Below are positions 15,674-44,647 of a stretch of 64,000 bases of DNA, one piece after another. The position numbers were made by a program, and so were the translations under genes. The stretch lies in the NCBI RefSeq assembly GCF_016863655.1, contig NZ_BOPH01000083.1, positions 29,901 to 93,900 of the forward strand, in the 5' to 3' direction. Every line of letters begins with the position of its first letter. Position 1 is the first letter of the stretch. The notes beneath the pieces are model-generated. The model worked only from the letters and a program-made list of their open reading frames with translations, ran no database searches and was not told the DNA's origin. This DNA comes from Virgisporangium ochraceum (lineage in GTDB: Bacteria > Actinomycetota > Actinomycetes > Mycobacteriales > Micromonosporaceae).

Positions 15674-15687
15674 CCTTCGGCACAACA

Positions 15688-15716
15688 TTGATCGGCGTCA
15701 AGATTTCGCCTAACGT
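15688..15716 (+). promoter_or_regulatory. candidate sigma70-type promoter TTGATC-N17-TAACGT upstream of the secreted hydrolase gene
   Basis: Hexamer pair with a 17-bp spacer, 18 bp upstream of the ATG at 15734. Confidence 0.4.
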
Positions 15717-15733
15717 CGTCGGCGGGAGGCGCC

Positions 15734-17074: not shown

Positions 17075-17091
17075 CCCGCCGATGACCCGGG

Positions 17092-18315
17092 CTAGCGCAC
17101 GCGGCGGCGGCTGAGGGCGGCCACGCCGGCGAGGAGCACCACGAGCACCGCGGCGAACCAGGTCATCGCGGTGGTCGTGGTCACCGCGCGGGTCGCGACG
17201 CCGATCGCGACGGCCGGCAGGCTGAGACCCAGGTAGGAGACCAGGAACAGGCCGGCCAGCGCCTCGCCGCGGCGGGCCGGTGCGGCGGTCGTCACCACCG
17301 CGCCGACCGCGGCCTTGAACAGCATCCCGGCGCCCACGCCGGCGACCACCCCACCGACGAGGAACGCCGCCAGGTTCGCGGCGTGCATGCCGGCGACGAG
17401 GACGAGCACGCCGGCGACCTGCGCGAGCAGGCCGGCGGCCAGCCTGGTGCCCGCCGCGAGGCCGTTGGTCAGCGTCTGCGCGGCGGCCGCAGCGGCGAAG
17501 ACCGCGAACACGACGGCACCGGCCAGCGCCCGCGACGGGTGGTGCAACGCGCCGGCGACGAAGCCCGAGGCGACGGACGTGAACAGGCCGAAGACCGCGA
17601 ACGACGCGAAGCCGGCCACGGTCGCGACGAGGTAGCCGTCGCCGTGGTCGGCGCTGACCCGCTGCGGGCGGTAGGCCGGCCGGTCGGCCCGCACCTCGAC
17701 CGTCTCGGGCGTCGCCGCGACGGCGACGATGGCGGCGGTCAGCAGCACCGCGAACACCAGGTACGGGGTGCGCAGCGGGGCGTCGACGTACTGGGCGAGG
17801 AACCCGGCCACGAGCGGGCCGAACCCGACGCCACCGAGGTTGGCCGCGGTGGACACGATCTCGAAGCGCTGCCGGGACGCGCCGGGCCGGTGCGCGGTGT
17901 GCAGGTCGAGCAGGTACGCCGTGGCGGTGGCCGTGATCATGCCGACGCCGAGACCGGTGACCAGCCGGGCCACGAGCAGCACCGGCAGCGACGGGTCGGC
18001 GAGGAACAGCACCGCGGCCACCAGCTCCAGCGCGAGCGCCGGAACGAGGACGCGCCGGCGTCCCACCCGGTCGGAGATGTGCCCGGCCAGCAGGAGGCTG
18101 ATCACCACGCCGACGGCGTAGACGGCGAACACCACGGTGACCATGAACGTCGAGAACCCGTCGCGGGCCTGGTAGAGCGGGTACAGCGGGGTCGGCACGG
18201 TCGAGAACGCCATCGCGACGAGGAACGCGCCGCTGACCGCCCAGAAGCCGATGCCGTGCCGGCTCGAACCGCTCACGGCGGGTGGGGCGGGTCGAACGGC
18301 CGAGGTGATGGTCAT
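17092..18315 (-). CDS. MFS transporter
   Basis: C-terminal 407 aa of ORF 17092..18924, starting at MTITSAV. Contains 12 predicted TM helices and the MFS motif GHISDRVGRRRV. Confidence 0.8.
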   Translation of the reverse strand: MTITSAVRPAPPAVSGSSRHGIGFWAVSGAFLVAMAFSTVPTPLYPLYQARDGFSTFMVTVVFAVYAVGVVISLLLAGHISDRVGRRRVLVPALALELVAAVLFLADPSLPVLLVARLVTGLGVGMITATATAYLLDLHTAHRPGASRQRFEIVSTAANLGGVGFGPLVAGFLAQYVDAPLRTPYLVFAVLLTAAIVAVAATPETVEVRADRPAYRPQRVSADHGDGYLVATVAGFASFAVFGLFTSVASGFVAGALHHPSRALAGAVVFAVFAAAAAAQTLTNGLAAGTRLAAGLLAQVAGVLVLVAGMHAANLAAFLVGGVVAGVGAGMLFKAAVGAVVTTAAPARRGEALAGLFLVSYLGLSLPAVAIGVATRAVTTTTAMTWFAAVLVVLLAGVAALSRRRVR

Positions 18316-18384
18316 GGACCCACTGTCCACGCGCCAGCGATCGCGTCCAACGAGAGTTCTCGCTCCCAGCGATCTGGATGTGCG

Positions 18385-19401
18385 ATGGTTGGATGCGTGG
18401 AGCTCCGTCATCTCGAGTACTTCGTCGCGGTCGCGGAGGAGCGGAACTTCACCCGGGCCGCGGCGCGGCTGCACATCGTGCAGTCGGCGGTGTCGGCCGC
18501 GGTCAAGGCGCTGGAGCGCGACCTCGGCGCGGCGCTGCTCGACCGCAACTCCAAGCGCGTGCTCCTCACCGACGCCGGCGAGGCCCTCCTGCCCCGGGCG
18601 CGCATCGCGCTCGACGCCGCCCGCGACGCCGCCGACGCCGTCGCCGAGGTGCGCGGCGGCCTGCGCGGCACGCTGCGCCTGGGCACGATGACGTCGGTCG
18701 GGCTCATCGACGTGCCGGCGCTCCTCGGCGAGTTCCACCGCCACCACCCGGGTGTGCTCGTGCGGACCAGCGCCGCGCCGTCCGGGTCGCGTGGGCTCCT
18801 CGACGCGCTCGTTGAGCGGCGGCTGGACGTCGCGTTCGTCTCCTGGCCGGGACCCGCGCCCGCCGGGATCGACCTGACCGACCTGGCCCACTCGGTGATC
18901 GACCTCGTCGTGCCGGCCGGGCACCCGTTCGCCGGCCGGGCCGCGGTGCCGATCGACGACCTGGCCGGCCTGGACTTCATCGACTCACCCGTCGGCTTCG
19001 GCAACCGCACGGTCATCGACCGCGCCTTCGCCGCGGCGGGCCTGCGCCGCCGCGTCACCATCGAGATCACCGACATCGCGACCGGGGTCGCCTACGTCCG
19101 GCACGGCCTGGGCGTCGCGCTGCTCCCCCGCTTCATCCTCGGTGGCGCCGGGGGCGTCGCCACGCTGACGGTCACCGGCGCAGACCTGCGCTGGCCCCTG
19201 TCGCTGGCGACCCCGACCGACCGCCCACCCGCCGCACCGGCCCGCGCCCTGATCGCCCTCGTCCGCGACGTGCTCGCTGACCCGGTCACGCGTTCCGGCG
19301 TAGCCAGTCGGCCTTTGCCTGATCCCGCGGCACCGGCGCGGTCCGGTCGAAGGAGTCGAGCAGCGCCGCCAACGCGGCACCGGGACCCTGGTCGCCGATG
19401 A
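18385..19401 (+). CDS. LysR-family transcriptional regulator (divergent from MFS transporter)
   Basis: Within ORF 17383..19401. N-terminal HTH (ELRHLEYFVAVAEERNFTRAAARLHIVQSAVSAAVKALE) plus a substrate-binding domain. The start is either the ATG at ~18385 or the GTG four codons later. Long Pro/Arg-rich C-terminal tail. Confidence 0.8.
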   Translation: MVGCVELRHLEYFVAVAEERNFTRAAARLHIVQSAVSAAVKALERDLGAALLDRNSKRVLLTDAGEALLPRARIALDAARDAADAVAEVRGGLRGTLRLGTMTSVGLIDVPALLGEFHRHHPGVLVRTSAAPSGSRGLLDALVERRLDVAFVSWPGPAPAGIDLTDLAHSVIDLVVPAGHPFAGRAAVPIDDLAGLDFIDSPVGFGNRTVIDRAFAAAGLRRRVTIEITDIATGVAYVRHGLGVALLPRFILGGAGGVATLTVTGADLRWPLSLATPTDRPPAAPARALIALVRDVLADPVTRSGVASRPLPDPAAPARSGRRSRAAPPTRHRDPGRR

Positions 19402-23369: not shown

Positions 23370-26046
<2,677 letters not shown>

Positions 26047-28058: not shown

Positions 28059-29069
28059 GTGATCGCATTCGGAGTCGTCGGCATCGAGCACCCGCACGCG
28101 ATGAACATGATCGCCGGCCTGCTCGCGGCCGGTGCGCGCTGCGCCGGCCTGTACACCGCCGAGCCCGGACCGGTGTTCGCGCAGTGCCGGGCCCGGTTCC
28201 CCGACCTGCCCGTCGTCGACGACGCGCGGCGGCTGATCGAGAGCGTGGCCTTAGTCGTCAGCGCCGACGTTCCGGACCGGCGCGCGGCGGTGGCGGTCTC
28301 CGCGTTGCGCGCCGGCAGGGACGTTCTCGTCGCGAAGCCGGGATGCACGACGCCCGGGCAGCTCGCGGAGATCCGGGCCGCGGTCGAGGAGACGGGACGC
28401 CGGTGGGTGGTCGCGTTCTCGGAACGGCTGCACGTGCGGTCGGCCGTGCGCGCGGGGGACCTCGTGCACGCCGGTGCCATCGGCACGGTGGTCCAGACGA
28501 TCGGACTGGGACCGCACCAGCTGAAGCTGCCGACGCGTCCCGGCTGGTTCTTCGACGTGGAACGCAACGGCAGCATCCTCACCGACCTCGCCTCGCACCA
28601 GATCGACCAGTTCCTCTACTACACCGGATCGACCGACGCCGAGATCGTGGCGAGCACCGTCGCCAACTACGGGATGCCGGAGCGCCCGTCGTTCGAGGAC
28701 TTCGGCGAGGTGCTGCTCCGGGCGGAGCGTGCACACGGGTACGTCCGCGTCGACTGGTACAGCCCCGACGGGTTGAAGACCTGGGGTGACGGGCGGCTGA
28801 CGATCCTCGGCACCGCCGGCTACATCGAGCTACGCAAGTACGTGGATCCCGCCGGACGGGCGGGCGGCGACCACCTGTTCCTCGTGGACGGCCAGGAGAC
28901 CCGGTACGTCGACTGCTCCGACGTGCGGCTGCCGTTCTACCCCGACCTCGTCCGCGACGTGGAGGAGCGTACGGAGACGGCGATCGGCCAGGAGCACACG
29001 TTCACGGTCTCCGAGCTGTCGATCCGCGCGGCGGAACAGGCGCACCGGGCCGGGCACCTCACGGGGTGA
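28059..29069 (+). CDS. Gfo/Idh/MocA-family oxidoreductase
   Basis: GTG start. N-terminal Rossmann fold (IAFGVVGIEHPHAMNMIAGL) followed by a C-terminal alpha/beta domain. Confidence 0.85.
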   Translation: MIAFGVVGIEHPHAMNMIAGLLAAGARCAGLYTAEPGPVFAQCRARFPDLPVVDDARRLIESVALVVSADVPDRRAAVAVSALRAGRDVLVAKPGCTTPGQLAEIRAAVEETGRRWVVAFSERLHVRSAVRAGDLVHAGAIGTVVQTIGLGPHQLKLPTRPGWFFDVERNGSILTDLASHQIDQFLYYTGSTDAEIVASTVANYGMPERPSFEDFGEVLLRAERAHGYVRVDWYSPDGLKTWGDGRLTILGTAGYIELRKYVDPAGRAGGDHLFLVDGQETRYVDCSDVRLPFYPDLVRDVEERTETAIGQEHTFTVSELSIRAAEQAHRAGHLTG

Positions 29070-30198
29070 CCTCGGGCCAGTCGAGCATCCGCGCGCCGAG
29101 AACGGCCGTCTCCACCGTGTAGCGGTGGTCGGGGTTCGACGGGTCGTACCCGGTGAGCCGGTGGATGCGGGCCAGCCGGTAGGTCAGCGCGCGCACGCTC
29201 AGGTGCAGGTCACGCGCGGCGGCCGTCGCGTTGCCCGCGCGGAAGTACGCGGTGAGCGTGTCGAGCAGGGGACGCGCGCCGCCGCGGGCGTCCTGCAACG
29301 GCGACAGCACGGTCTCGACGAGGTCGACGATCGCCGCCCGGTCGCGCCCGAGCACCTGGTACACAAGGAGATCCGCGCCGAGCAGGTGGTCGGCCGCGAC
29401 GCCGAGGCGCGACGACAGCTCCAGCGCCGTACGCGCCTCGTCGTAGGAGCGGGCCACCCCGCCGGGACCGGGATGCGGCCGGCCGACCCCGACCGTGCCG
29501 GGACGCTCGTGCCCCACCGCCGCACGGACGTCGGCGAGCACCGCACCGCTGTCGGTGCTCTGCACGACGCACACGAGCAGCCCCTCCTTGGTGGCGATCA
29601 GCACACCGGTGCCGCCCAGCCGGCCCCGTACCGCGTCGGCGACACTCCGCGTGCGGTCGTCGGCGTCGGTGAACGCGTTGCCTCCGTTGAGGACCGCGAC
29701 GACGTGGTGCGCCACGAGGTACAGCCCGAAGCCGCCGGCCCGTTCCGCCAGCCGGCCGGGGTCGGCACCGTGGAGCAGGTCGTCGATGAACTCCCGGCGC
29801 AGCGCCTCCTCCGCGCGGATGGCCGAGCGGTGCGCGTCGTCGTAGCCGTCGGCGAGCGCGACGACCGCCTCGTTCGCGGCGCGCAGCACGGCCGCGGTGA
29901 CGTCGTGCCGGCGCGGCGTGCCGGTGTCGGGAAGGTCGGTCCACGCGAGCCGGGTGGCGCCGAGGTACACGTCGACGAGCGTGCCGAGCGGAACGTTGTT
30001 CTCGGCCGCCCGCCGGCCGAGCAGCCGCCGGTCGTCGCGCTCCTTACGGGTCAGGCCCCGGCCGGTGCGCCGTACATCGCGCACGATCTCCAGGTACCCC
30101 TCCAGCAGACCGGGGTCGGTGCCGCTCGACGCGGCGGCGCGGCGGGCGATCGCCGCGATGGTCTCGGCCAGCGCGGCGCGGCTCGGTGAACGGGGCAC
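29059..30198 (-). CDS. PucR/CdaR-family transcriptional regulator
   Basis: C-terminal PucR HTH (LDTLTAYFRAGNATAAARDLHLSVRALTYRLARIHRLTG). Convergent with the oxidoreductase gene, overlapping it by 11 bp. Confidence 0.8.
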   Translation of the reverse strand: MPRSPSRAALAETIAAIARRAAASSGTDPGLLEGYLEIVRDVRRTGRGLTRKERDDRRLLGRRAAENNVPLGTLVDVYLGATRLAWTDLPDTGTPRRHDVTAAVLRAANEAVVALADGYDDAHRSAIRAEEALRREFIDDLLHGADPGRLAERAGGFGLYLVAHHVVAVLNGGNAFTDADDRTRSVADAVRGRLGGTGVLIATKEGLLVCVVQSTDSGAVLADVRAAVGHERPGTVGVGRPHPGPGGVARSYDEARTALELSSRLGVAADHLLGADLLVYQVLGRDRAAIVDLVETVLSPLQDARGGARPLLDTLTAYFRAGNATAAARDLHLSVRALTYRLARIHRLTGYDPSNPDHRYTVETAVLGARMLDWPEVTP

Positions 30199-30314
30199 CC
30201 CTTACCTCCTTCGTTGCCGGGAACCGGCAGTGAACGCACCGCCACCGTAGCCGAGCCGCGCTCTATCCCGGTCATACATCTTCCACGATCATGTAGGCGA
30301 CGACAGAGGCGGAG

Positions 30315-30941
30315 GTGGGAACGGTGGCGGAATTCATCGAGGCGACACTGGCCTTTCCGACCGCTCTGTTCTCGTTCCTGCTCGTGGTGGCCGTCGGCTA
30401 CTGGGTCGTGGTTCTGCTCAGTCTCCTCGACCTCGATCTCTTCGACGCGGCGGGCGTCGACGCCGACGGCGTCGCCGCGGCCGACAGCGGGATCGCCTCC
30501 GCCATGACCGCCGCCGGGCTCGGTGGCGTGCCCGTCACCGTGGTTCTCACGGTGCTGATCGCGTTCGCGTGGTTCTTCAGCCTCGCCGGGAACGCTTTCG
30601 TGGGCGGCATTCCGCTGGCGCGCGCCGTGGTGCTTCCGGTCGCGCTCGGTGGTGCGTATCTCGGCACCCGGTCGATCGTCGTGCCGGTCCGGCGCCTGCT
30701 CCCGCACCGGCCCGCACCGTCCAGGATGGACTTCGTCGGCCGGCACTGCGTGGTGCGCACCGGCCAGGTGGGTCCCGACTTCGGCCAGGCCGAGGTGACC
30801 GCCGACGACGGGTCCACCGCGATCATCCAGGTGCGCCTGGCCGCGTACTCGCTGGCCGATGCCGGCTGGACCGCGCTGATCTACGACTACGACGCCGAGA
30901 CCGAGGCGTTCTGGATCACGCCGGCCGAACCGGCCATCTGA
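30315..30941 (+). CDS. NfeD/YqiJ-like membrane protein (3 TM + C-terminal OB-fold beta-barrel)
   Basis: GTG start with RBS GAGGCGGAG. Three hydrophobic helices, then a C-terminal domain GRHCVVRTGQVGPDFGQAEVTADDGSTAIIQVRL typical of NfeD short forms. It is the first gene of the flotillin operon. Confidence 0.7.
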   Translation: MGTVAEFIEATLAFPTALFSFLLVVAVGYWVVVLLSLLDLDLFDAAGVDADGVAAADSGIASAMTAAGLGGVPVTVVLTVLIAFAWFFSLAGNAFVGGIPLARAVVLPVALGGAYLGTRSIVVPVRRLLPHRPAPSRMDFVGRHCVVRTGQVGPDFGQAEVTADDGSTAIIQVRLAAYSLADAGWTALIYDYDAETEAFWITPAEPAI

Positions 30942-31033
30942 AAACCCTTTCTCCGTAAGCCCTTTCTTCGACGGGTGCCACGCGTTGACCGTGGCCCCCG
31001 ACGACTCGCGCGCCCATAAACAGGAGGTGTCCG

Positions 31034-32968
31034 GTGGACGAAATCACCGTGGGAATCGGTGTACTGCTCGCTGTGCTGCTCATGGCCGGGTTCGGCCTCG
31101 CTGTCTTCGTCACGCGGCTGTTCCGCAAGGTGCCGCAGGGCAAGGCGCTGATCATTTCCAAGGTACGCAAGGTCGACGTGACGTTCACCGGCGCCGTCGT
31201 GCTCCCGGTGCTGCACAAGGCCGAGGTCATGGACATCGCGGTCAAGACCATCGACATCGAGCGGACCGGCCGCGAGGGCCTGATCTGCCGCGACAACATC
31301 CGGGCCGACATCCGCATCACGTTCTTCGTCCGGGTCAACAAGACCGCCGAGGACGTCGTGAAGGTGGCACAGGCCATCGGCACCGACCGGGCCAGCGACC
31401 GGGAGACGCTGCAGGAGCTGTTCAACGCCAAGTTCTCCGAGGCGCTCAAGACCGTCGGCAAGCAGCTCGACTTCGTCGACCTCTACACCAAGCGCGAGGA
31501 GTTCCGCGACCGCATCATCCGGGTCATCGGCACCGACCTCAACGGCTACAGCCTCGAGGACGCGGCCATCGACTTCCTCGAGCAGACCCCGATGAACCGG
31601 CTCGATCCGGCGAACATCCTCGACGCGCAGGGGATCCGGAAGATCACCGAGCTCACCACGATCGAGCACGTCAACACCAACGAGTTCCAGCGCACCGAGG
31701 AGAAGGAGATCACCCGCCAGAACGTCGAGGCGCGGGAGGCGATCCTCGAGCTGCAGCGGCGGCAGGCCGATGCCGAGATCCGGCAGCATCGGGAGGTCGA
31801 GATCGTCCGGGCCCGCGAGGAGGCGGAGATCCAGCGGGTGCAGGCCGAGGAGCGGCTGCGCGCGCAGACGGCCCAGCTGCGCACCGACGAGCACCTGAGC
31901 GTCCAGCGGGAGAACCGCGACCGCGAGATCGCCGTCGCGGCGAAGAACCGCGAGCGGGTCATCGCGATCGAGACCGAGCGCATCGAGAAGGACCGGCTGC
32001 TGGAGGTCGTGCAGCGCGACCGCGACGTGGAGCTGTCGACGATCGCCAAGGACAAGGAGGTCGAGGCCGAGAAGCGGGACATCGCGAACGTCATCCGCGA
32101 GCGGATCGCCGTGCAGAAGACGGTTGCCGAGCAGGAGGAGGCGATCAAGCGGCTGCGCGCCGTCGAGGAGGCCGAGCGCACCCGGCAGACCGTCATCATC
32201 CAGGCCGAGGCGCAGGCGCAGGAGAAGCTCGTCAAGGACATCAAGGCGGCCGAGGCCGCCGAGCAGGCAGCCGCGCACAAGGCCCGCGAGTCGGTGGTGC
32301 TCGCACAGGCCCGGCGCGAGGCCGCCGAGCTCGACGCCGCCGCGAAGGCCCGGCTGGCCGACGGCATCCGCGCCGAGACCGCCGCACCGGGGCTCGCCGC
32401 GGTGGAGGTCAAGGAGCGCGAGGCCGACGCGATCGCGAAGGTGGGCCGGGCCGAGGCGGCCGCCGCGGCCGAGCACGCACGGGTCGCCGCCGACGCGGTC
32501 CGCGACCGGATGAAGGCGGAGGCCGAGGGCCTCACCGACAAGGCCGCGGCGATGGCCGCCCTCGACGAGGCGAGCCGGGAGCACGAGGAGTACCGGCTGC
32601 GGCTGGAGCAGGAGACGAAGGTCCGCCTCGCGGGCATCGAGGTGCAGCGGTCGGTGGCGGAGTCGCAGGCGCGGGTGCTGTCGGCGGCGCTGGAGAACGC
32701 CAACGTCGACATCGTCGGCGGCGACAGCCAGTTCTTCGACAAGCTCGTCGGCGCGGTGTCGCTGGGCAAGAGCGTGGACAGGTTCGTCGACCACTCGGCG
32801 GTCGCGCGCAGCCTCGCGGGGCCGTGGCTGGAGGGGTCCGCGAACCCGGTCGAGGACCTGGCGAAGCTGCTCGGTTCGGTCAACTCCGGTGACGTGTCGA
32901 ACGCGGCCCTGTCGGCGCTGCTGCTCCAGCAGATGCGCCACAACGGGTCGGAGAAGGCGGCGGCGTGA
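31034..32968 (+). CDS. flotillin-family SPFH/band-7 protein (YqiK/FloT-like)
   Basis: GTG start with RBS AGGAGGTG. N-terminal TM hairpin, an SPFH domain (KVDVTFTGAVVLPVLHKAEVMDIAVKTIDIERTGREGLICRDNIRADIRITFFVRV), and a long Glu/Ala/Arg-rich coiled-coil flotillin domain. Confidence 0.9.
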   Translation: MDEITVGIGVLLAVLLMAGFGLAVFVTRLFRKVPQGKALIISKVRKVDVTFTGAVVLPVLHKAEVMDIAVKTIDIERTGREGLICRDNIRADIRITFFVRVNKTAEDVVKVAQAIGTDRASDRETLQELFNAKFSEALKTVGKQLDFVDLYTKREEFRDRIIRVIGTDLNGYSLEDAAIDFLEQTPMNRLDPANILDAQGIRKITELTTIEHVNTNEFQRTEEKEITRQNVEAREAILELQRRQADAEIRQHREVEIVRAREEAEIQRVQAEERLRAQTAQLRTDEHLSVQRENRDREIAVAAKNRERVIAIETERIEKDRLLEVVQRDRDVELSTIAKDKEVEAEKRDIANVIRERIAVQKTVAEQEEAIKRLRAVEEAERTRQTVIIQAEAQAQEKLVKDIKAAEAAEQAAAHKARESVVLAQARREAAELDAAAKARLADGIRAETAAPGLAAVEVKEREADAIAKVGRAEAAAAAEHARVAADAVRDRMKAEAEGLTDKAAAMAALDEASREHEEYRLRLEQETKVRLAGIEVQRSVAESQARVLSAALENANVDIVGGDSQFFDKLVGAVSLGKSVDRFVDHSAVARSLAGPWLEGSANPVEDLAKLLGSVNSGDVSNAALSALLLQQMRHNGSEKAAA

Positions 32969-35900
32969 CGGGGGGCACGTCGACGACGGTCGGGCCGGAC
33001 ACGGGTGCCTACGCGGTGCTCCGTGCCCGGCTCGCCCGGCACGGCCGGGATCTGGCGAAGGCCGCGGAGAAGCTCGACGCTCAAAGAGCGACCACGTTCG
33101 CGTCAACCGCGCTGCGCGTGCTCGGATTGGAACGTGTCCGAACCCCGGCACCGACCGTCGCGCGGGATGTGGTCTGGGTAGGCGGCAGACTCGTCGTCGG
33201 CTTCGAGGGGACGCTCGCCGCGTACACGTTCCACCGCGAGGGCGAGACGTTCCACCTCACGCCGTCGGGCGCGGCGTGGCTGCGCGACGAGCGGCTGCAC
33301 GCCGACCTCGCCGAGCTGTTCCGGTACCACCGGCACACCCGGCTGCTCCGGCTGCGCGTGTTCGACGACCGGCTGCTGGCGACGTTCCAGGTCGGCCCGC
33401 GCCCCACCGACATCCGGGTGCTGCGGTGGGCGGTCGCGGCCGACGGCTCGGTGTCCTATGTGGACAACCAGGGTGAGCGGGAGCGCGCGGCGCCGCCGCC
33501 GGCCGACGTCGGATGGACGCCCGCCGGCCGGGAGGACCAGGTGCTGGTCGACCGGCGGCCGGTGCTCCTCGTCGACGGCGCCATACACGTGTCGACCACC
33601 GGTGGTGCGCTGACCGTCACGCCGGCTGACGACCGGGACCCGGTCTTCAGCGAGCCGGTCGACGAGCCGTTGCAGAGCCTCGCGGACGCCGACGTGGCGT
33701 ACGCCCGCGTCGGTGCGCTGGTGCTGCTGCGGGTGCGGCCCTACCGCGAGGAGTCCGACCGGTACCTCGCCTACAACACCCACACCCGCGAGGTCGTGCG
33801 CCTCGACGGGCTCGGCCGCGCCGTCCGGCGCCTTCCCGACGACCGCGGCGTCGTCTTCCCCGGCGGCTACTGCCTCAGCGCCGGCCCGGCCCGCGGGTTC
33901 GACGTCGACGACGAGGGGATGGAGTTCGAGCGCGTCGTGCGGCCGGCGGGCGGTGCCGACCTGCTGTACGTGTTCCACGCCCGGACCACTGGACGCTCGT
34001 TGCTGGTGCCCTACGACGTGGTGCGCGACGAGGTGGTCGCGCCGATCGAGGGCACCGGCCACGCGCTGACCGACGACGGCATCCTGCTGGTGCTGAAGGA
34101 CTCCGGCGCTGAGCCGACCCGCACGCACACCGTGCAGGCGTGGCACACCCCGTACGTCGACGAGGCCGCCGGCCCGGCCGGCGAGGGTCCGCTGGCGCGC
34201 ATCGGCAACGCCGACCTCGTCCGCGCGGTCTCCGACTGTCTGGCGCTGGCCCGGTCGGCGCGCGACGTTCCGGAGTCCACGGCGGCGATCGAGGCGCTCG
34301 CGGCCGCCGGCAACCGGCTGCTCGACCGGCACCACTGGCTCGGCGACGCGGCGCTCGCCGAGGCCGGCGTAGGCGATCTCCGTACGCCGGTCGCGGCCGT
34401 CCGCGACGCGGCCGTGCGGCTGCTGGACGAGTACGAGCGGACCCGGGTGGCCGTCGCCGCCTCCCGTGCGGCGGAGGACGAGGCCGCCGAGCAGGTGACG
34501 GCGCTCGTGCGGCGGGCCGAGGGCGAGCGGCCGGACAGCACGGCCGGCTGGGTCGGGCGGCTGGCCGAGCTGCGGGCGGCGCACGGTCTCCTCGCGGGCG
34601 TCCGCGAGCGGCCGCACGTCCGTCCACAGAGGATCGACGACCTGGCCGCGGCGCTCGACGCGGCCACCGCCGACGCGGGCCGGCGGGCCGTGGAGTTCCT
34701 CGCGGCGCCGGACGCGTTCGCGCCGTACCACGCGCGGCTCGACGGTCTCGACGCGGCCGCGCGCGAGGTCGCCACGGGCGCTGACGCCGACGCCTTCGCC
34801 GAGCGCCTCACCGCGGAGGTCGACGCCCTGCGCGCGGTGACCGACGTCGTCGGGACCCTGGACGCCGCTGACACGGGGCAGCGGGCCCGGATCCTGGAGC
34901 AGGTCGGCACCGTCCTGGGTGGACTGAACCGGACCCGCGCGACGCTGGACGCGCGGGTCCGGGAGGTCCGCTCGGCCGAGAGCCGGGCGGCGTTCGCCGC
35001 CGAGTCGACGCTGCTGCAGCAGTCGGTGACGGCCGCTCTCGCGCTGGCCGACACACCGCGGCGGTGCGACGCCGAGGTCGCCTCGCTCCTGGTACGGCTG
35101 GAGGACCTGGAGGCGCGGTTCGGCAGCAACGACTGGTTTGTCGCCGGGGGAGGCGACGAAGAGGACCAGCAGGCCACGCTGGCGGCCACCCGCGCCGCGG
35201 TCACCGACGCGTTCGCGGCCCGCAAGCAGGCGCTGCTCGACGAGCGGGCGCGCCGCGTCGACCGGGTCGCCGCGTCGTGCGAGCGGGTCTTCGCGGCCAT
35301 CGCGCACCGCTCTGCCGCGCTGTCCACAGTGGAGGAGGTGCGTGCGTACTTCGCCGGCGACCCGCTCGTCGGCCGCCTGCGCGCGCTCGCCGAGGAGCTG
35401 CGCGGGCTCGACGAGCCGGTGCGGGCCGTCGACGTGGCCGCCCGTCTGGTCGCCGCCCGCCAGGACGCCAACCGCACGGTCCGCGACCGGGCCGACCTGT
35501 ACGACGACGGCGGCGCGACGATCCGGCTGGGCGCGCACCGGTTCGCGGTCACCACGGAGCCGGTCGAGGTCGCGGTGCTCCCCCACGGCGACGACCTCGC
35601 CGTCACGGTCACCGGCACCGGCTACCGCCGCCCGGTCCGTGACGACGGGCTCGCCACGACGCGGCGGTTCTGGGACCGGCCCGTGGTGTCCGAGTCGCCG
35701 ACGGTGTACCGGGGCGAGTACCTCGCCGCGTCCCTGCTCCCCGCCTGCGGGCCGGGCACGGACCTCGCCGCGCTCGTCCGGGAGGCCGCCGCGGCCCGGC
35801 ACGACGAGGGGTACGTGACGGGCGTGCACGACCACGACGCCACCGCGATCCTCGGCGCGCTCGTCGACGCGCGCGCCGCCGCCGGCCTGCTGCGGTACCC

Positions 35901-37668
35901 GCCCGACGCGCGTGCCGCCGCCCAGCTCTACTGGGGCCTGGCCGACCCCGACCCGCGGCTGGCCCACCGGGCGGCGGCCCTGGTGCGCGCCCGCGACACC
36001 GTCGGCGCGGTCGAGGCGGTGCGCGCGTTCGCCGACGACCTGCGCGTGGCGGCACACCGGTTCCTCGCGGACGCGGGGCTGCCCACCGGCGGCGACCTCG
36101 TCGGCGAGTACCTGGTGGAGGAGCTCGCGACCGGACCGTCGTTTGTGGCCAGCGTCGAGGCGCTCGACCTTCTCGAGCGCTTCCGCGCGGACCACGGCGA
36201 CGTGGTCGACCCCGACGACGGTCCCGGCGCCCGGCACCAGATCGCGTCGGCGTGGCTCACCGGGCTCGGCCCGTTCGTCCCCGAGGCGGTGGCGATGCTG
36301 GTGTGCGACGTCGAGCGCGTCCGCGTCGACGCGCCCGTCGTGTCCACAGTGGAGGGTCTGCTCGGCGCGCACCCCCGCGTCGTCGACGGCCGGCTGGAGT
36401 TCCGGCTCGACGACCTGCTCGCCCGCACCCGGGAGCACGAGGTTCACGAGGTGCCGGCCTACCGCGCGTACCGGTCCGCCCGTGCCGAACTGGTCGAGCG
36501 CGAGCGCGACCGGCTGCGCATCGACGAGCACCGGCCGGCGGTGCCGGACTCGTTCGTCCGCAACCGGCTCATCGACGAGGTGTACCTGCCGCTGATCGGT
36601 GACAACCTCGCCCGCCAGCTCGGTACCACCGACCCGGCCGGCGCCACCGAGCGGTCCGGACTACTCGTTCTCGTCTCCCCACCCGGGTACGGCAAGACGA
36701 CGCTCGTCGAGTACGTGGCGAGCCGGCTGGGTCTGCTCCTGGTCACCGTGAACGGTCCCGCGCTCGGCACCGGCACGACGTCGCTCGACCCCGACGGCGC
36801 CCCCGACGCCGCGGCGCGGCAGGAGGTGGAGAAGATCAACCTGGCGCTGGAGCTCGGCACCAACGTGATGCTCTACATCGACGACATCCAGCACACGTCG
36901 CCGGAGCTGCTGCAGCGGTTCGTCCCGCTGTGCGACGCCGGCCGGCGCATCGAGAGCGTCCGTGACGGGCGCGCGGTCACCGTCGACCTGCGCGGTACGC
37001 GGTTCGCGGTGTGCCTGGCCGGCAACCCGTACACCTCGGCCGGACAGCGGTTCCGGCTGCCCGACATGCTCGCCAACCGCGCCGACGTGCTCGACCTCGG
37101 CGAGGTCCTGTCGGGCCGCGACGACCTGTTCGAGGAGAGCTACCTGGAGAACGCCCGGGCCGCACTGTCCACAGAGGACACATCGGCGCTCCTGACGCAC
37201 GTGCGCGACGTGATGCTCGCGGTCAACCGCGCCTACATCGACTCGGCCGCGCAGACCGACGCCAGCCGCACCGAGCCGCCGTTCCTGCTGCAGGGCTCCT
37301 ACCGCGACATGAACGCGATCGCGCGGCGCGTCCACCCCACCATGGACACGGCCGACGTCGACGCGCTCGTCGACGACCACTACGCCGGCGAGGCGCGGAC
37401 GCTCGGCCCCCACGCCGAGGCGAACCTGCTCAAGCTGGCGCTCCTGCGCGGCGGTCACACGCCGGCGCAGGCGGAGCGGTGGGACCACGTGACAGCGGCC
37501 TACCGCCGCCAGCAGCTGCTGGGCGGCTCCGACGACGACCCGGTCGCCCGGGCGGTGGGCGCCATCACCACCCTGACCGACCGCCTGGAGGCGGCGATCC
37601 TGCGGGCGGCGGCCGTCCCACCACCCAACGGCCACCGTATCTACCTCGAGTCCCTGGGCAGCCCGTGA
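32965..37668 (+). CDS. 1567-aa flotillin-associated protein with C-terminal AAA+ ATPase (MoxR/dynein-related AAA_5-like); annotated in databases, if at all, as a 'DNA repair ATPase'-like protein
   Basis: The start overlaps the flotillin stop (GTGA). There is no Arg/Pro low-complexity anywhere in the 1567 aa. The N-terminal ~420 aa is beta-rich and repetitive, the middle ~700 aa is Ala/Glu/Arg helical, and the C-terminus is an AAA+ domain. AAA+ motifs: Walker A LLVLVSPPGYGKTTLVEY, Walker B VMLYIDDIQH, sensor-1 VCLAGNPYT, Arg finger RFRLPDMLANRADVL. Confidence 0.8.
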   Translation: MTGGTSTTVGPDTGAYAVLRARLARHGRDLAKAAEKLDAQRATTFASTALRVLGLERVRTPAPTVARDVVWVGGRLVVGFEGTLAAYTFHREGETFHLTPSGAAWLRDERLHADLAELFRYHRHTRLLRLRVFDDRLLATFQVGPRPTDIRVLRWAVAADGSVSYVDNQGERERAAPPPADVGWTPAGREDQVLVDRRPVLLVDGAIHVSTTGGALTVTPADDRDPVFSEPVDEPLQSLADADVAYARVGALVLLRVRPYREESDRYLAYNTHTREVVRLDGLGRAVRRLPDDRGVVFPGGYCLSAGPARGFDVDDEGMEFERVVRPAGGADLLYVFHARTTGRSLLVPYDVVRDEVVAPIEGTGHALTDDGILLVLKDSGAEPTRTHTVQAWHTPYVDEAAGPAGEGPLARIGNADLVRAVSDCLALARSARDVPESTAAIEALAAAGNRLLDRHHWLGDAALAEAGVGDLRTPVAAVRDAAVRLLDEYERTRVAVAASRAAEDEAAEQVTALVRRAEGERPDSTAGWVGRLAELRAAHGLLAGVRERPHVRPQRIDDLAAALDAATADAGRRAVEFLAAPDAFAPYHARLDGLDAAAREVATGADADAFAERLTAEVDALRAVTDVVGTLDAADTGQRARILEQVGTVLGGLNRTRATLDARVREVRSAESRAAFAAESTLLQQSVTAALALADTPRRCDAEVASLLVRLEDLEARFGSNDWFVAGGGDEEDQQATLAATRAAVTDAFAARKQALLDERARRVDRVAASCERVFAAIAHRSAALSTVEEVRAYFAGDPLVGRLRALAEELRGLDEPVRAVDVAARLVAARQDANRTVRDRADLYDDGGATIRLGAHRFAVTTEPVEVAVLPHGDDLAVTVTGTGYRRPVRDDGLATTRRFWDRPVVSESPTVYRGEYLAASLLPACGPGTDLAALVREAAAARHDEGYVTGVHDHDATAILGALVDARAAAGLLRYPPDARAAAQLYWGLADPDPRLAHRAAALVRARDTVGAVEAVRAFADDLRVAAHRFLADAGLPTGGDLVGEYLVEELATGPSFVASVEALDLLERFRADHGDVVDPDDGPGARHQIASAWLTGLGPFVPEAVAMLVCDVERVRVDAPVVSTVEGLLGAHPRVVDGRLEFRLDDLLARTREHEVHEVPAYRAYRSARAELVERERDRLRIDEHRPAVPDSFVRNRLIDEVYLPLIGDNLARQLGTTDPAGATERSGLLVLVSPPGYGKTTLVEYVASRLGLLLVTVNGPALGTGTTSLDPDGAPDAAARQEVEKINLALELGTNVMLYIDDIQHTSPELLQRFVPLCDAGRRIESVRDGRAVTVDLRGTRFAVCLAGNPYTSAGQRFRLPDMLANRADVLDLGEVLSGRDDLFEESYLENARAALSTEDTSALLTHVRDVMLAVNRAYIDSAAQTDASRTEPPFLLQGSYRDMNAIARRVHPTMDTADVDALVDDHYAGEARTLGPHAEANLLKLALLRGGHTPAQAERWDHVTAAYRRQQLLGGSDDDPVARAVGAITTLTDRLEAAILRAAAVPPPNGHRIYLESLGSP

Positions 37669-37823
37669 CCGCGTTCCGGCCGAGAATGCACGAGCGTTTC
37701 CTCTGGCAGGGCCGGCCGGGTCAGCCGGACCAGCCCGTGTTCCGGGACGTGGCGCACGTCCGGAGAGGGCGCGCCCGGGTGGCGAAGGCACGCCCCCGGG
37801 CCCGCCGGGCGTGGCTGTCCGCC

Positions 37824-37859
37824 TGAGCGGTGCCGGCCGCCGCCGGCCGGCACCGCTCA
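37824..37859. terminator. 16-bp perfect hairpin (TGAGCGGTGCCGGCCG-CCGC-CGGCCGGCACCGCTCA) between convergent genes
   Basis: Lies between the giant ATPase stop (37668) and the stop of the minus-strand gene, which it overlaps at 37857. Confidence 0.5.
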
Positions 37860-38204
37860 GGTCTTCATGAGGTGCAGCAGCCAGTCGGAGCCGGTGCGGA
37901 TCAGGGCGTAGGTCCTCGGGACGCCGCGACCGTGGAGGGTGAAGACGATGCGGCGTTCGTTGCGGTCGACCTCCTCCCACCAGCCGATGTCGGCGATGTC
38001 CTTGTCGGCGTCGGTGTAGGTCAGGTGGTCGAGGTCGTGGTCGGGCACCGCGACCGCCAGCCGGTTGCGCCCGGGGTCGTCGGGAAGGCCGCGCGGCACC
38101 GCCCACGACCGGAGGACGCCGTCCTCCTCCAGGCGCAGGTCGAAGTGGTGCCGCGGCTTGCGGTGCTCGTGCAGCACGAACGTCGTCCGGCCCTGGTCGT
38201 CCAC
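37857..38204 (-). CDS. DNA-ligase-D 3'-phosphoesterase-like (DNA polymerase ligase N-terminal domain) small protein
   Basis: Motifs HHFDLRLE..VLRSWAVPRGLP and GRGV characteristic of standalone LigD_PE-like proteins. Convergent with the giant ATPase gene, separated by a hairpin. Confidence 0.6.
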   Translation of the reverse strand: MDDQGRTTFVLHEHRKPRHHFDLRLEEDGVLRSWAVPRGLPDDPGRNRLAVAVPDHDLDHLTYTDADKDIADIGWWEEVDRNERRIVFTLHGRGVPRTYALIRTGSDWLLHLMKT

Positions 38205-38262
38205 GGCTCCCAGTCTGCCCCCTCGCGGAGGGGCGGAACCGGCATGGTAGAAAGTATCGATA

Positions 38263-39090
38263 ATGGGCGATCAGCGTAGGCTCGACCCGTCGCGGCCGCA
38301 CGCGGCGCGGCGGTACAACTACTGGCTGGGCGGCAAGGACCACTTCCAGGCCGACCGCGACTCCGCGGCGATGATCGAGCAGTTCATGCCGTCGGTGGCC
38401 ATCGGGGCCCGCGAGAACCGCAGGTTCCACGGCCGGGCGGTGCGGTACCTCGCCGACGCCGGGATCCGCCAGTTCCTCGACATCGGCTGCGGCCTGCCGG
38501 CACCCGACAACACCCACGAGATCGCCCAGGCGGTCGACCCGACGGCGCGGGTCGTCTACGTCGACAACGACCCGCTCGTGCTGGCCCACGCGCGTGCCCT
38601 GCTCCAGGGGACCCCGGAGGGCCGCACCGCGTACATCGACGCCGATCTGCGGCAGCCCGAACGGATCATCAACAGCCCCGAGGTCTTCGCGACGCTCGAC
38701 CTCGACCAGCCGGTCGGCATCCTGCTGGTGGCGGTGCTCCACTTCATGCTCGACGAGGACGAGCCGTACGAGATCGTGCGGCGCCTCGTCGACGCGGTCC
38801 CCCCGGGCAGCTACCTGGTGCTCAGCAACGCGACCACCGACTTCATGCCACCCGAGCACGTCGCGATGTACGACGCGGCGAACGCCCGGGCCGAGCGGCG
38901 GGAGGACCGGGCGCAGTTGCGGTCGAAGGAGGAGGTCGCGCGCTTCTTCGACGGCCTCGACCTGGTGCCACCGGGAATCTGCTGCCCGGTCGACTGGCGC
39001 CCGACCGACCCGCAGGCCCCGCGGCCCGGCCCTACCGAGGTCTTCGCGCACGCCGGCGTAGCGAGGATCCCTCAGCGCAGCGCCTCGTAG
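38263..39090 (+). CDS. SAM-dependent methyltransferase (DUF574 family)
   Basis: Motifs YNYWLGGKDHF, IRQFLDIGCGLP and VVYVDNDP. Confidence 0.75.
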   Translation: MGDQRRLDPSRPHAARRYNYWLGGKDHFQADRDSAAMIEQFMPSVAIGARENRRFHGRAVRYLADAGIRQFLDIGCGLPAPDNTHEIAQAVDPTARVVYVDNDPLVLAHARALLQGTPEGRTAYIDADLRQPERIINSPEVFATLDLDQPVGILLVAVLHFMLDEDEPYEIVRRLVDAVPPGSYLVLSNATTDFMPPEHVAMYDAANARAERREDRAQLRSKEEVARFFDGLDLVPPGICCPVDWRPTDPQAPRPGPTEVFAHAGVARIPQRSAS

Positions 39091-42321: not shown

Positions 42322-43452
42322 CTAGCGGGGTGCGACCTCCCTGACGAACACGACCGCGTCGGTCGTGGGCAGGCCGGCCGGGTCGAGGGCGGAGTAGCCG
42401 TGGTACGGCGACGTCCGCGGCACCAGCCCCGGGCCGGCCACGGAGCGGGCGTCCACCACGAAGCTGTCGCCGGGACGGGCGTACAGCAGGCCCTCCACCG
42501 TGTCCGGGGGCGGGGCGTCGACACCGTGGTGGCGCAGCGTGCCGATCGCCGTCGCCAGGAACGCGTACCGCTCCCCCAGCCGGTCGGCGACCAGCGCGCC
42601 GGCGCCCCACCACGCCACCTCCTGCTCGCCCATGCGCATCGTGCTCCTCGCCCGCTGCAGGTGGCCGTTGTGCGCGTGCACCAGGGTCGGGCCCTCCCCG
42701 GCGAGGGCGAGCAGGTTGGCGGCCATCATCGCGGCGCGCGCGGTCACCAGCCGGGTCAGCCGGGCGGGCGAGTCGTCGGCGAGCCAGCGGTGGTACCGCA
42801 GGAGACCGGTGGCTGTGCGGGCGTACAGGTCGTCCTCCGGTGAGACCGGTAGCTGCGCGTGGAGCAGGGTCACCAGGTCGTCGGCGAGCAGCCGCAGCCG
42901 GTCGGCCTCCGGCGAGCGCCCCACCGACCGGGACGGGTCGCGCATCGCACCGGGGTCGGCCCAGCGGTCGTCGGCGCCGAGGAGGTCGTCGAGGTCGCCG
43001 GCGGTGCACGGAAGGGAGTCGACCCGGTCGGCGAGGCTCGCGTGCAGGGCCATCAACGCGTGGCGCGGGCTCTGCGCGCCGGTCATCTCCAGCGGGCCGT
43101 CGAACCCGGCGAACCGCACGTGCTCCGCCGGAGGCCGGGCCTCGTTGTGCGACCGCATCCAGCGGACCAGGTCGCGGTTGCCCGCGGACGCGTTGAACCA
43201 CCGGTGGCTGAAGCCGCGCTCCATCACGTCGTCGAGGTCGCCGTCGCCGGTCCGGACGTAGTCGTCGACGATCCCGGCCAGCAGGCAGTCGCTCTCGATC
43301 GCGACCGTGCGGTAGCCCTCCCGCTCCACGAGCTGGCGGAAGAGCCCGTTGCGCACGTCGAGGAGGGTCCCCTCGCCGTGCACCGGCTCACCGAGGGCGA
43401 GCATTCGCGGTGGGACCGGCAGCAGCGCGGTCACGGCAGCGGCGTCGACCAT
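42322..43452 (-). CDS. erythromycin-esterase-family (EreA-like) protein
   Basis: 376-aa ORF with EreA/ChaN-like motifs: HGEGTLLDVRNGLFRQLVEREGYRTVAIESD and LVHAHNGHLQR. Confidence 0.8.
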   Translation of the reverse strand: MVDAAAVTALLPVPPRMLALGEPVHGEGTLLDVRNGLFRQLVEREGYRTVAIESDCLLAGIVDDYVRTGDGDLDDVMERGFSHRWFNASAGNRDLVRWMRSHNEARPPAEHVRFAGFDGPLEMTGAQSPRHALMALHASLADRVDSLPCTAGDLDDLLGADDRWADPGAMRDPSRSVGRSPEADRLRLLADDLVTLLHAQLPVSPEDDLYARTATGLLRYHRWLADDSPARLTRLVTARAAMMAANLLALAGEGPTLVHAHNGHLQRARSTMRMGEQEVAWWGAGALVADRLGERYAFLATAIGTLRHHGVDAPPPDTVEGLLYARPGDSFVVDARSVAGPGLVPRTSPYHGYSALDPAGLPTTDAVVFVREVAPR

Positions 43453-43462
43453 GCCCTGAACG

Positions 43463-44647
43463 CTATCGTTGAACCTCCGGTTGAACCTTTCGTACGGCGT
43501 GCACCGGTCGGTACCGGTCGTCGAGCAGCGTGATCAGGCACAGCAGCAGTACGAAGAACAGCGCTGCCTTCACGTCGAAGTCACCGTCGTCGCGGCCGAG
43601 CAGCGCTGACGCGGTCACCACGAGCACGACATTCACCAGCACCCGGCCGACGAACGCCGCCACCGACGACTGGATGCTGTGCCACCGGCGCGCGACCAGC
43701 ACCGTGATCGCGGCATTGACCACCACGAACACGGCGGTGCCGACGAACAGTTCCGTCCCGCTCGACCGGAGGCCCGGCAGCACCTGGCTGAAGACGACGC
43801 TGAGACCGCCGACGAGCGCCACCTTCTCGACGGTGCCGCGCGACCCGATGGTCCCGTTGGTGGCGAACCACCGGTCACGCTCGGCGGCGGAGTCCATCTC
43901 CTCGGGAAGCGGGTCGGCGCGCACCGCCCACCGGCGGCTCGGCGCGGGCAGCCGGGGCCGCAGCCCGAACCACAGGCCGGCGACCACGCCGAGCACCAGC
44001 CCTCCGAGCACCAGCCACAGCCACGGCTTGTCGCTCAGTTGGTCGGTCAGGTCGAGCTGCGCGATGTGGATCCAGTACTCCTGCGGCAGCTTCACCCCGA
44101 TCCAGATCACGGCGGCGACGATCACCCAGGCCCGGAAGCCGACCCGGGCGGGGTCGCGGCGCAGCCGGTACGCCTCGTAGGCGATGAAGAAGTACTCGAA
44201 CACGTTCGGGAAGATCAGGAGGAACGGGCGCCACTGCGTCTCCTCGAACGCGATCACGCCGACGAGCCGGTAGAAGTAGAGGAACCCGGCCACCCGGACG
44301 GCCGCCTCGCTGGTCCAGTTCCGCAGTGTCGCGAGGTAGGCGATGGCCAGGTAGTAGACGTCCATGGCCTTGTCGTAGCCCTGGTAGCCGGGCGGGTCGT
44401 ACCCGAACGCCTGGAAGATCGTCTGGTCGACACCGTCGAGCACCAGCGCGCCGAGGATGGCGGGCAGGGGGAAGCGGGGAATCAGCAGCGGCAGGACGAA
44501 CCGGGCACCGACGACGACCAGGAAGACGGCGGCGTCCACGCGAGCCTCCGGGGGATCGATGGGTCGCACAGACTCTACGCACGCACGCGTGTCGAGAACG
44601 TCCCCGCGGCTGCGTCCCGGCACCGTCGCACACATCGGAGGAGACAC
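43463..44647 (-). CDS. polytopic integral membrane protein, family not recognised
   Basis: 394-aa ORF with about 9 hydrophobic helices and aromatic-rich loops (FLYFYRLVGVIAFEETQWRPFLLIFPNVFEYFFIAYEAY). Confidence 0.55.
   Translation of the reverse strand: MSPPMCATVPGRSRGDVLDTRACVESVRPIDPPEARVDAAVFLVVVGARFVLPLLIPRFPLPAILGALVLDGVDQTIFQAFGYDPPGYQGYDKAMDVYYLAIAYLATLRNWTSEAAVRVAGFLYFYRLVGVIAFEETQWRPFLLIFPNVFEYFFIAYEAYRLRRDPARVGFRAWVIVAAVIWIGVKLPQEYWIHIAQLDLTDQLSDKPWLWLVLGGLVLGVVAGLWFGLRPRLPAPSRRWAVRADPLPEEMDSAAERDRWFATNGTIGSRGTVEKVALVGGLSVVFSQVLPGLRSSGTELFVGTAVFVVVNAAITVLVARRWHSIQSSVAAFVGRVLVNVVLVVTASALLGRDDGDFDVKAALFFVLLLCLITLLDDRYRPVHAVRKVQPEVQR

Follow-up and report, generated by a model that had tools for sequence, protein, structure and literature searches.

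A three-gene operon of Virgisporangium ochraceum couples a YqiK-type flotillin gene to the gene for a large, soluble, MoxR-like AAA+ ATPase

What does a 1567-residue ATPase do when its gene overlaps that of a flotillin? The question is raised by a three-gene operon of the actinomycete Virgisporangium ochraceum, located at positions 30315-37668 of a 64,000-nucleotide stretch of contig NZ_BOPH01000083.1 (assembly GCF_016863655.1, positions 29,901 to 93,900 of the forward strand); this whole stretch is called the window, and coordinates refer to it unless another replicon is named. The operon encodes a YqiJ-like membrane protein, a flotillin and a soluble AAA+ ATPase that carries the annotation 'DNA repair ATPase'. 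The answer argued for here, to which we assign a rough probability of one half, is that it specifies a PucR-regulated membrane module in which the ATPase remodels flotillin assemblies or their clients, in membrane stress or maintenance. How flotillin and other SPFH scaffolds are built and recycled, and how clients leave them, is a standing question in bacteria and in eukaryotes. For testing the idea of a remodeller, the operon offers a genetically simple and widely conserved flotillin-ATPase pair, with translational coupling in many genomes.

In the window, which has a GC content of 73%, real genes were told from shadow open reading frames (ORFs) by the GC content of the codon positions. The values at third positions (GC3) of the three operon genes follow the pattern of real genes, and antisense or shifted ORFs that overlap them show a pattern wrong for coding. 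The genes are co-directional:

30315..30941, + strand: gene 1, YqiJ/DUF1449-like (NfeD-like) membrane protein, 205-208 amino acids (aa); identified by GC3 0.90, hydrophobic segments and the names of orthologues
31034..32968, + strand: gene 2, flotillin, a YqiK-type SPFH protein, 644 aa; identified by GC3 0.97 and hhalign comparison with YqiK
32965..37668, + strand: gene 3, soluble AAA+ ATPase, 1567 aa, annotated 'DNA repair ATPase'; identified by GC3 0.95 and NCBI identity

The GTG start of the ATPase gene (32965) overlaps the TGA stop of the flotillin gene (32966-32968) as GTGA, an AGGAGG ribosome-binding site lies 8 nucleotides before the flotillin GTG at 31034, genes 1 and 2 are spaced by 92 bp, and a gap of 116 bp lies between gene 1 and a gene for a PucR-type regulator, which is transcribed divergently. 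An earlier model-made reading of the letters (the sequence-only reading) had described three co-directional genes with this overlap and this gap, and its coordinates and junctions are correct. The start of gene 1 is more likely the GTG at 30324, three codons after 30315, because the NCBI product has 205 aa and a GGAGG stands upstream. Simple scans found no sigma-70 promoters or intrinsic terminators in 29900-38400, a result that is uninformative in an actinomycete of 73% GC. The three genes form a real operon.

At NCBI, a Virgisporangium ochraceum protein with the annotation 'DNA repair ATPase' matches the product of gene 3 at 100% identity and 100% coverage. This product has no hydrophobic or membrane segment and carries a conserved loop at aa 230-241. 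It is built from the following parts:

33049..34335, + strand: aa 29-457, N-terminal helix and beta-propeller-like DUF3686 (PF12458), scoring 452 bits where the Pfam gathering cut-off is 25 (E 1.8e-135)
34711..34965, + strand: aa 583-667, DUF7902, within the helical middle (aa ~409-1190)
36547..37164, + strand: aa ~1195-1400, AAA+ alpha/beta core
36676-36702, + strand: aa 1238-1246, Walker A, SPPGYGKTT
36871-36894, + strand: aa 1303-1310, Walker B, LYIDDIQH
aa ~1328-1341: beta-hairpin preceding sensor 1
37024-37026, + strand: N1354 of sensor 1, GNPYT
37078-37080, + strand: Arg finger R1372 (MLANRAD)

AlphaFold models were built on 36-sequence alignments for aa 1-720 and aa 840-1567, with predicted local distance difference test scores (pLDDT) of 87.6 and 82.6, respectively. 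In the models an N-terminal helix is followed by strands (aa 51-394), by helices (409 to ~860 and ~900-1190) and by an AAA+ core (~1230-1380) that carries a beta-hairpin before sensor 1. Among solved folds, those nearest to the AAA+ module belong to NorQ and CbbQ, both MoxR ATPases, and to midasin, with dynein also near, in agreement with the MoxR/dynein-like module suggested by the sequence-only reading. The motifs which that reading quoted (Walker A, Walker B, sensor 1 and Arg finger) are all present and are far from degenerate on alignment: GYGKT, DD, GNPYT and ANRAD do not vary among 81 orthologues or between phyla. Because the catalytic motifs are nearly identical across phyla, the ATPase is, on alignment, very probably catalytically active. 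Two stretches found in all 13 of the aligned orthologues are missing from the Virgisporangium protein, namely 12 aa after aa 80, in the first propeller blade, and 36 aa after aa 1409, in a helical region just past the AAA+ core; since the reading frame is intact, both gaps are taken as lineage-specific shortening.

The distribution of the operon was followed by a pattern scan with one genome per species, in which at least 594 of the 600 matching stretches encode a relative; the analysis went on with the best 80 loci. At every one of the 77 related loci with enough upstream DNA, the gene immediately before that of the ATPase, on the same strand, is the flotillin gene, and at 17 other loci ORF calls give the same -4 overlap of flotillin stop and ATPase start. 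The synteny with flotillin on which the sequence-only reading had staked its case is found at all of these loci and also in Vibrio, Flammeovirga, Deinococcus and the Pseudomonas plasmid pQBR103. Strict all-against-all clustering of the 80 loci places the ATPase in 80, the flotillin in 74, the YqiJ-like protein in 39 and a PucR-type regulator in 31, and no other gene family is conserved at them. By the profile search, which covered 75 loci, the YqiJ-like gene is full-length in 58, while 6 retain just the stretch for its membrane part and 11 have no such gene; the loci with an absent or truncated gene are all from Streptomyces, and they keep flotillin and ATPase. (The gene is absent from loci L030, L032, L043, L048, L056, L059, L067, L068, L070, L076 and L080 of our collection, and lacks the C-terminal soluble block in L034, L035, L036, L041, L058 and L047.) The invariant core is a YqiK-type flotillin with a soluble AAA+ ATPase dedicated to it, from the MoxR/midasin clade, and the YqiJ-like protein is a frequent third partner.

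Outside the actinomycetes, the order of a protein of ~200 aa, an SPFH protein of ~650-700 aa and the ATPase recurs in Vibrio, Flammeovirga, a Deinococcus megaplasmid and pQBR103, and the three-gene operon is kept together across at least five bacterial phyla. The ATPase domain family is small, with 466 clusters at 50% identity, and uniform in architecture. Its full-length proteins range from 1550 to 2036 aa, and its more remote members belong to Vibrio, Niabella, Flammeovirga and Thermoanaerobaculia. The module is found occasionally on megaplasmids of Streptomyces, Pseudomonas, Hymenobacter and Deinococcus. At the locus of Vibrio sp. D431a (15502-18754; L082/L083), genes for a TelA-like protein, a ClpX-like AAA+ protein and a Dam-type methyltransferase lie downstream of the triad, and several small co-directional ORFs with no Pfam match lie upstream of it.

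Profile comparison makes gene 2 a member of the flotillin/YqiK family of the SPFH superfamily, as had been read from the letters. A profile of 13 orthologues was matched by hhalign to Escherichia coli YqiK with a probability of 99.7% (E 2.5e-26) over aa 9-290, a span that runs from the membrane anchor through the SPFH domain into the beginning of the coiled coil. Direct sequence searches of Pfam and PDB with the flotillin and YqiJ-like proteins matched nothing, and the homology of genes 1 and 2 was therefore established through the YqiK profile comparison and the Flammeovirga orthologue. Pfam Band_7 has no match in the window flotillin at E <= 0.1; it matches 3 of the 13 orthologues (best 1.2e-7) and the orthologue of the Vibrio operon, and the NCBIfam FloT model meets the window protein at E 7.6e-5, far below its cut-off.

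The flotillin has a single hydrophobic segment (aa 1-31), a region rich in Glu, Ala and Arg at aa ~220-560 that appears from translation and alignment as a long coiled coil, and a conserved C-terminal region with the block DIVGGD..FFD..GK.VD. It can be aligned from end to end with the flotillin of the pQBR103 operon (44% identity, E 7e-102), whereas the first 290 aa alone align with YqiK; by this comparison, the operon flotillins are a distinct subfamily conserved over their full length as far as a Pseudomonas plasmid. Given that YqiK has no ATPase partner, an alignment confined to its N-terminal part fits a flotillin C-terminal region that may be adapted to such a partner. Basic residues follow the anchor (TRLFRKVPQGK), and positive residues likewise follow the last hydrophobic segment of the YqiJ-like protein, so that by the positive-inside rule the bulk of the flotillin and the soluble part of the YqiJ-like protein should both lie in the cytoplasm with the ATPase. 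The Streptomyces stomatin-like protein StlP (SCO2834, PMC11920096) was considered as the identity of gene 2 and rejected, given its other architecture and other locus.

The product of gene 1 has hydrophobic segments at aa ~7-49 and ~60-114 and a conserved C-terminal soluble block (VGR..V.RT..V...FGQAEV....G....V.VR) that would fit an OB-fold domain. No match to YqiJ_N (PF21001) was found by Pfam in this protein or in 12 orthologues, and the match to E. coli YqiJ is weak, if collinear (E 0.0049, probability 7%). The protein is accepted as YqiJ/DUF1449-like on three grounds, namely that source records name its orthologues 'DUF1449 family', 'YqiJ family' or 'OB-fold-containing' protein, that the family profile aligns over its full length with the protein of the Flammeovirga operon (probability 97.7%, E 1.5e-12), and that the Flammeovirga protein itself passes the Pfam YqiJ_N cut-off (26.9 vs 23 bits). 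The sequence-only reading had called it NfeD/YqiJ-like. The second half of that name holds; NfeD proper was ruled out, with no match to the NfeD domain (PF01957) at E <= 1 in the window protein or the 12 orthologues, and 'NfeD-like' is used as a loose functional label.

Two further elements upstream of the operon bear on its control:

29059..30198, - strand: divergent PucR-family regulator, Pfam GGDEF_2 (E 5.1e-19) and HTH_30 (E 6.6e-15; the PucR C-terminal helix-turn-helix)
30214..30229, no strand: operator-like inverted repeat TTGCCGG-GAA-CCGGCA in the divergent promoter region, between the PucR gene and the operon

Of 77 related loci, 31 have a PucR homologue as the gene next upstream of the operon, and most of these are from Streptomyces and Embleya. 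The translation of the window gene may start downstream of its first start codon, since alignments to homologues begin near residue 30. The inverted repeat is the sole exact match in the window, where 0.31 matches with at most one mismatch are expected by chance. Its consensus, ATTGCCGG-N3-CCGGCAAT, occurs in 38 of 86 loci, nearly always just upstream of the operon, and the extended form (A)TTGCCGG-N3-CCGGCA(AT) is found ~100-400 bp upstream (loci L031-L080). The loci that carry it are mostly from Streptomyces and Embleya, the majority of whose loci have it in common with Virgisporangium, often with two copies 33 or 76 bp apart, and it is absent from actinomycete loci that have no adjacent PucR gene. 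Because Virgisporangium and Streptomyces belong to different orders, the palindrome looks like a conserved operator, and this is its likely role; the PucR protein would then bind it, as a candidate regulator of the operon. The sequence-only reading mentioned neither regulator nor palindrome, and it missed the PspA link described below. The two elements together provide a candidate regulator-operator pair through which an inducing signal might be found.

The association of flotillin and ATPase is not new. It was published as a computational observation in a survey of PspA by Ravi et al. (mSystems 2024, PMC11237479; bioRxiv 2020), where an operon of YqiJ/YuaF, a band-7/flotillin protein and an ATPase with beta-propeller, coiled-coil and AAA+ parts is described, and the novelty implied by the sequence-only reading was overstated. 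That operon sometimes includes a CesT/Tir-PspA dyad or a phospholipase D, its link to PspA is reported in Bacteroidetes and Proteobacteria, and abbreviated operons that lack PspA are described as widely distributed and suggested to work with PspA encoded elsewhere (PMC11237479). In Table S3 of the survey, Dokdonia donghaensis has the series YqiJ-YuaF, Band-7+coiled-coil+flotillin, and beta-propeller+coiled-coil+AAA-ATPase, which matches the window by architecture and context, with the same three components in the same order. The window carries the abbreviated form, without CesT/Tir-PspA dyad and without phospholipase D, and adds the PucR regulator and the recurrent palindrome; these two are new here, as far as the passages of the survey that deal with this operon go. 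A context of the kind described by Ravi et al. was found here for DUF3686 proteins in Bacteroidota, Pseudomonadota and Deinococcota.

Better known are the two-gene pairs E. coli yqiJ-yqiK and Bacillus subtilis yuaF-floT. As in the window, the gene of a membrane protein that ends in an OB-like part precedes that of an SPFH coiled-coil flotillin with an N-terminal anchor; unlike the window, neither pair has a third gene. Gene 1 of the window is very divergent from E. coli YqiJ, and the C-terminal half of its flotillin belongs to a separate subfamily from YqiK. Shewanella SO1376/SO1377 (PMC1468410) was considered as a precedent and set aside, being a two-gene yqiJK pair only.

The published link to PspA raises the possibility that PspA/IM30, the bacterial ESCRT-III, is the real substrate, and that flotillin and the YqiJ-like protein recruit the ATPase, as a functional analogue of Vps4 acting on PspA polymers, to damaged membrane. 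On pQBR103 (NC_009444.1 85112-97641) the triad closes a co-directional cluster of nine genes with the order PspA/IM30, rhomboid protease, DUF2491, DUF350, DUF1190, glutathionylspermidine synthase and triad, in which the DUF2491, DUF350, DUF1190 and glutathionylspermidine synthase genes are yjfK/L/M/C-like; this is an extended form of the operon of Ravi et al., whose CesT/Tir-PspA operons contain the same three genes and whose abbreviated operons are suggested to use a distant PspA (PMC11237479). However, no PspA was detected among 23 scanned window proteins, a scan that left out ~30 other genes of the window, nor among the gene families shared by the 80 loci or the inspected genes at the loci of Flammeovirga, Deinococcus and two metagenome-assembled genomes (MAGs); the co-directional ORFs upstream of the Vibrio triad provide no candidate by Pfam. 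The sole invariant partner of the ATPase is flotillin, and the AAA+ module falls in the MoxR clade, not in the classical clade of Vps4, with no MIT-like domain seen. PspA as the substrate is therefore considered unlikely.

The preferred reading places the work of the ATPase on the flotillin itself or on its clients. The N-terminal helix would anchor the flotillin, whose cytoplasmic SPFH domain and coiled coil would build an oligomeric scaffold. The ATPase would be made in step with it through translational coupling, would assemble through its C-terminal AAA+ module, presumably into a hexamer, and would dock by physical contact on the flotillin assembly at the cytoplasmic face of the membrane. 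The beta-propeller and long helical arms could serve as a built-in adaptor, replacing the separate VWA adaptors of NorQ and CbbQ (NorD and CbbO). ATP would be spent on remodelling of the flotillin (assembly, disassembly or turnover) or on the loading or extraction of clients, and the likely setting is membrane stress or maintenance. By analogy, this reading draws support from the nearest folds, since NorQ, CbbQ and midasin are remodelling ATPases that act through an adaptor, and also from the position of the pQBR103 triad directly after a PspA/IM30 operon and from the same link in the survey of Ravi et al. (2024). An ATP-driven machine on a flotillin scaffold, as the sequence-only reading had it, fits this evidence, and we infer it rather than observe it.

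Partnerships of SPFH cages with AAA+ machines are established, with HflK/C and FtsH, and prohibitin and the m-AAA protease, as the examples. FtsH and m-AAA are membrane-embedded proteases of the classical clade, and the HflK/C cage is periplasmic. In those systems, as here, an SPFH scaffold is coupled functionally to an AAA+ machine at the membrane, but the window ATPase is a soluble protein from a different clade and lacks a protease domain, so that the likeness is one of logic and not of homology. To our knowledge, no dedicated energy-consuming remodeller has been described for flotillin or SPFH scaffolds. A stronger proposal sees in the DUF3686 ATPase the first machine dedicated to the ATP-driven assembly and disassembly of an SPFH scaffold, with the propeller recognising the subfamily-specific C-terminus of the flotillin; it is put forward tentatively and regarded as doubtful. 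If it were true, the ATPase would be to flotillin cages what Vps4 is to ESCRT-III and NSF is to SNAREs. The operon is present in tractable hosts, namely Streptomyces, Vibrio, Proteus and the Pseudomonas plasmid pQBR103.

The similarity to NorQ and CbbQ also suggests a different role, in which the ATPase is a MoxR-style maturation chaperone for another membrane complex and the flotillin a platform that concentrates the client. Both NorQ and CbbQ are dedicated maturation or activation factors of specific enzymes, and bacterial flotillins are generally regarded as scaffolds of client complexes. Yet in no lineage does the operon have a conserved neighbour that could encode such a client, and there is no VWA/MIDAS adaptor: none is encoded in the inspected flanks of the window or of the non-actinomycete loci, or among the shared families of the 80 loci. 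We consider a dedicated client of this kind distinctly improbable. NorQ and CbbQ have VWA adaptors and the window ATPase has no VWA partner, and it is therefore called MoxR-like and not filed in a MoxR subfamily.

Several points weigh against the remodelling of flotillin. Pfam AAA matches around aa 1235-1330 are weak, and the AAA_5 score of the window ATPase is 19.4, under the cut-off of 22 bits, with orthologues from MAGs at 24.1 and 29.2 bits; by this score and the missing VWA partner, the module is not a canonical MoxR. The Walker B motif reads D-D instead of the usual D-E in all members, and the kinetics of hydrolysis may thus be unusual. No close structural relative of the beta-propeller was found. 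Since 17 of 75 loci have no YqiJ-like gene or a truncated one, the mechanism cannot depend on this gene. A literature search for DUF3686, PF12458, 'DNA repair ATPase' or MoxR with flotillin/SPFH found no study of the ATPase. Lastly, linkage in an operon is a functional connection but not proof that flotillin is the substrate.

The annotated function, an ATPase of DNA repair, is suggested by the names 'DNA repair ATPase' and 'ATPase involved in DNA repair' and, in this genome, by an adjoining gene:

37857-38204, - strand: stand-alone LigD_N 3'-phosphoesterase domain protein, 115 aa, E 1.5e-20, convergent to the ATPase gene

This is the convergent LigD-phosphoesterase-like gene that the sequence-only reading had placed just downstream, and its identity holds. 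However, a LigD_N gene next to the operon occurs in 0 of 80 related loci and is hence taken to be unrelated to it. The ATPase has a single C-terminal AAA+ module of the MoxR clade, with no DNA-binding, nuclease or SMC/ABC-type ATPase features found; it resembles RuvB in the common AAA+ core alone, and the proteins conserved alongside it are membrane proteins. A role in DNA repair is hardly credible on this evidence. 'DNA repair ATPase' is the COG label of SbcC/RecN, which was presumably transferred through similarity of the long Ala/Glu/Arg helices, and the analysis corrects a misleading annotation that has spread to thousands of proteins.

The sequence-only reading had also entertained phage defence. 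The combination of a large multi-domain NTPase with membrane proteins, the occasional location on megaplasmids and the low identity between phyla might point to an anti-phage or other conflict system, whose membrane scaffold and large NTPase would detect infection and set off a response. Nevertheless, PADLOC (PADLOC-DB 2.0) returned only IetA for the ATPase (E 0.0015, aa 1233-1263), a match to the P-loop at the level of Walker A noise, and nothing for genes 1 and 2; no effector domain (nuclease, protease, TIR or pore-former) was found in the operon, and there were no homologues among 50,697 phage records. The module is widespread in actinomycete genera, where its gene order is stable and it has a dedicated regulator, which sets it apart from defence islands with their patchy occurrence. 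The genes around it in the window are ordinary ones of metabolism and stress. A defence role is thus very unlikely, with nothing in its support from either PADLOC or the phage collection. The surroundings of the operon are an ordinary chromosomal context, not a defence island, and include the following:

1885-2619, - strand: LPMO_10 protein with a CBM5/12 module
9101-9811, - strand: type IV prepilin peptidase
23370-26046, - strand: furA-katG-type pair, a catalase-peroxidase (KatG-type, 749 aa) with a Fur-family regulator (144 aa) directly upstream
42322-43452, - strand: erythromycin-esterase-family protein
63184-63981, - strand: Septum_form domain protein

A 394-aa ORF with no Pfam match, at 43463-44647 on the - strand, has good coding statistics (GC3 0.89). 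The KatG/Fur genes are a typical oxidative-stress pair and lie ~4 kb from the operon.

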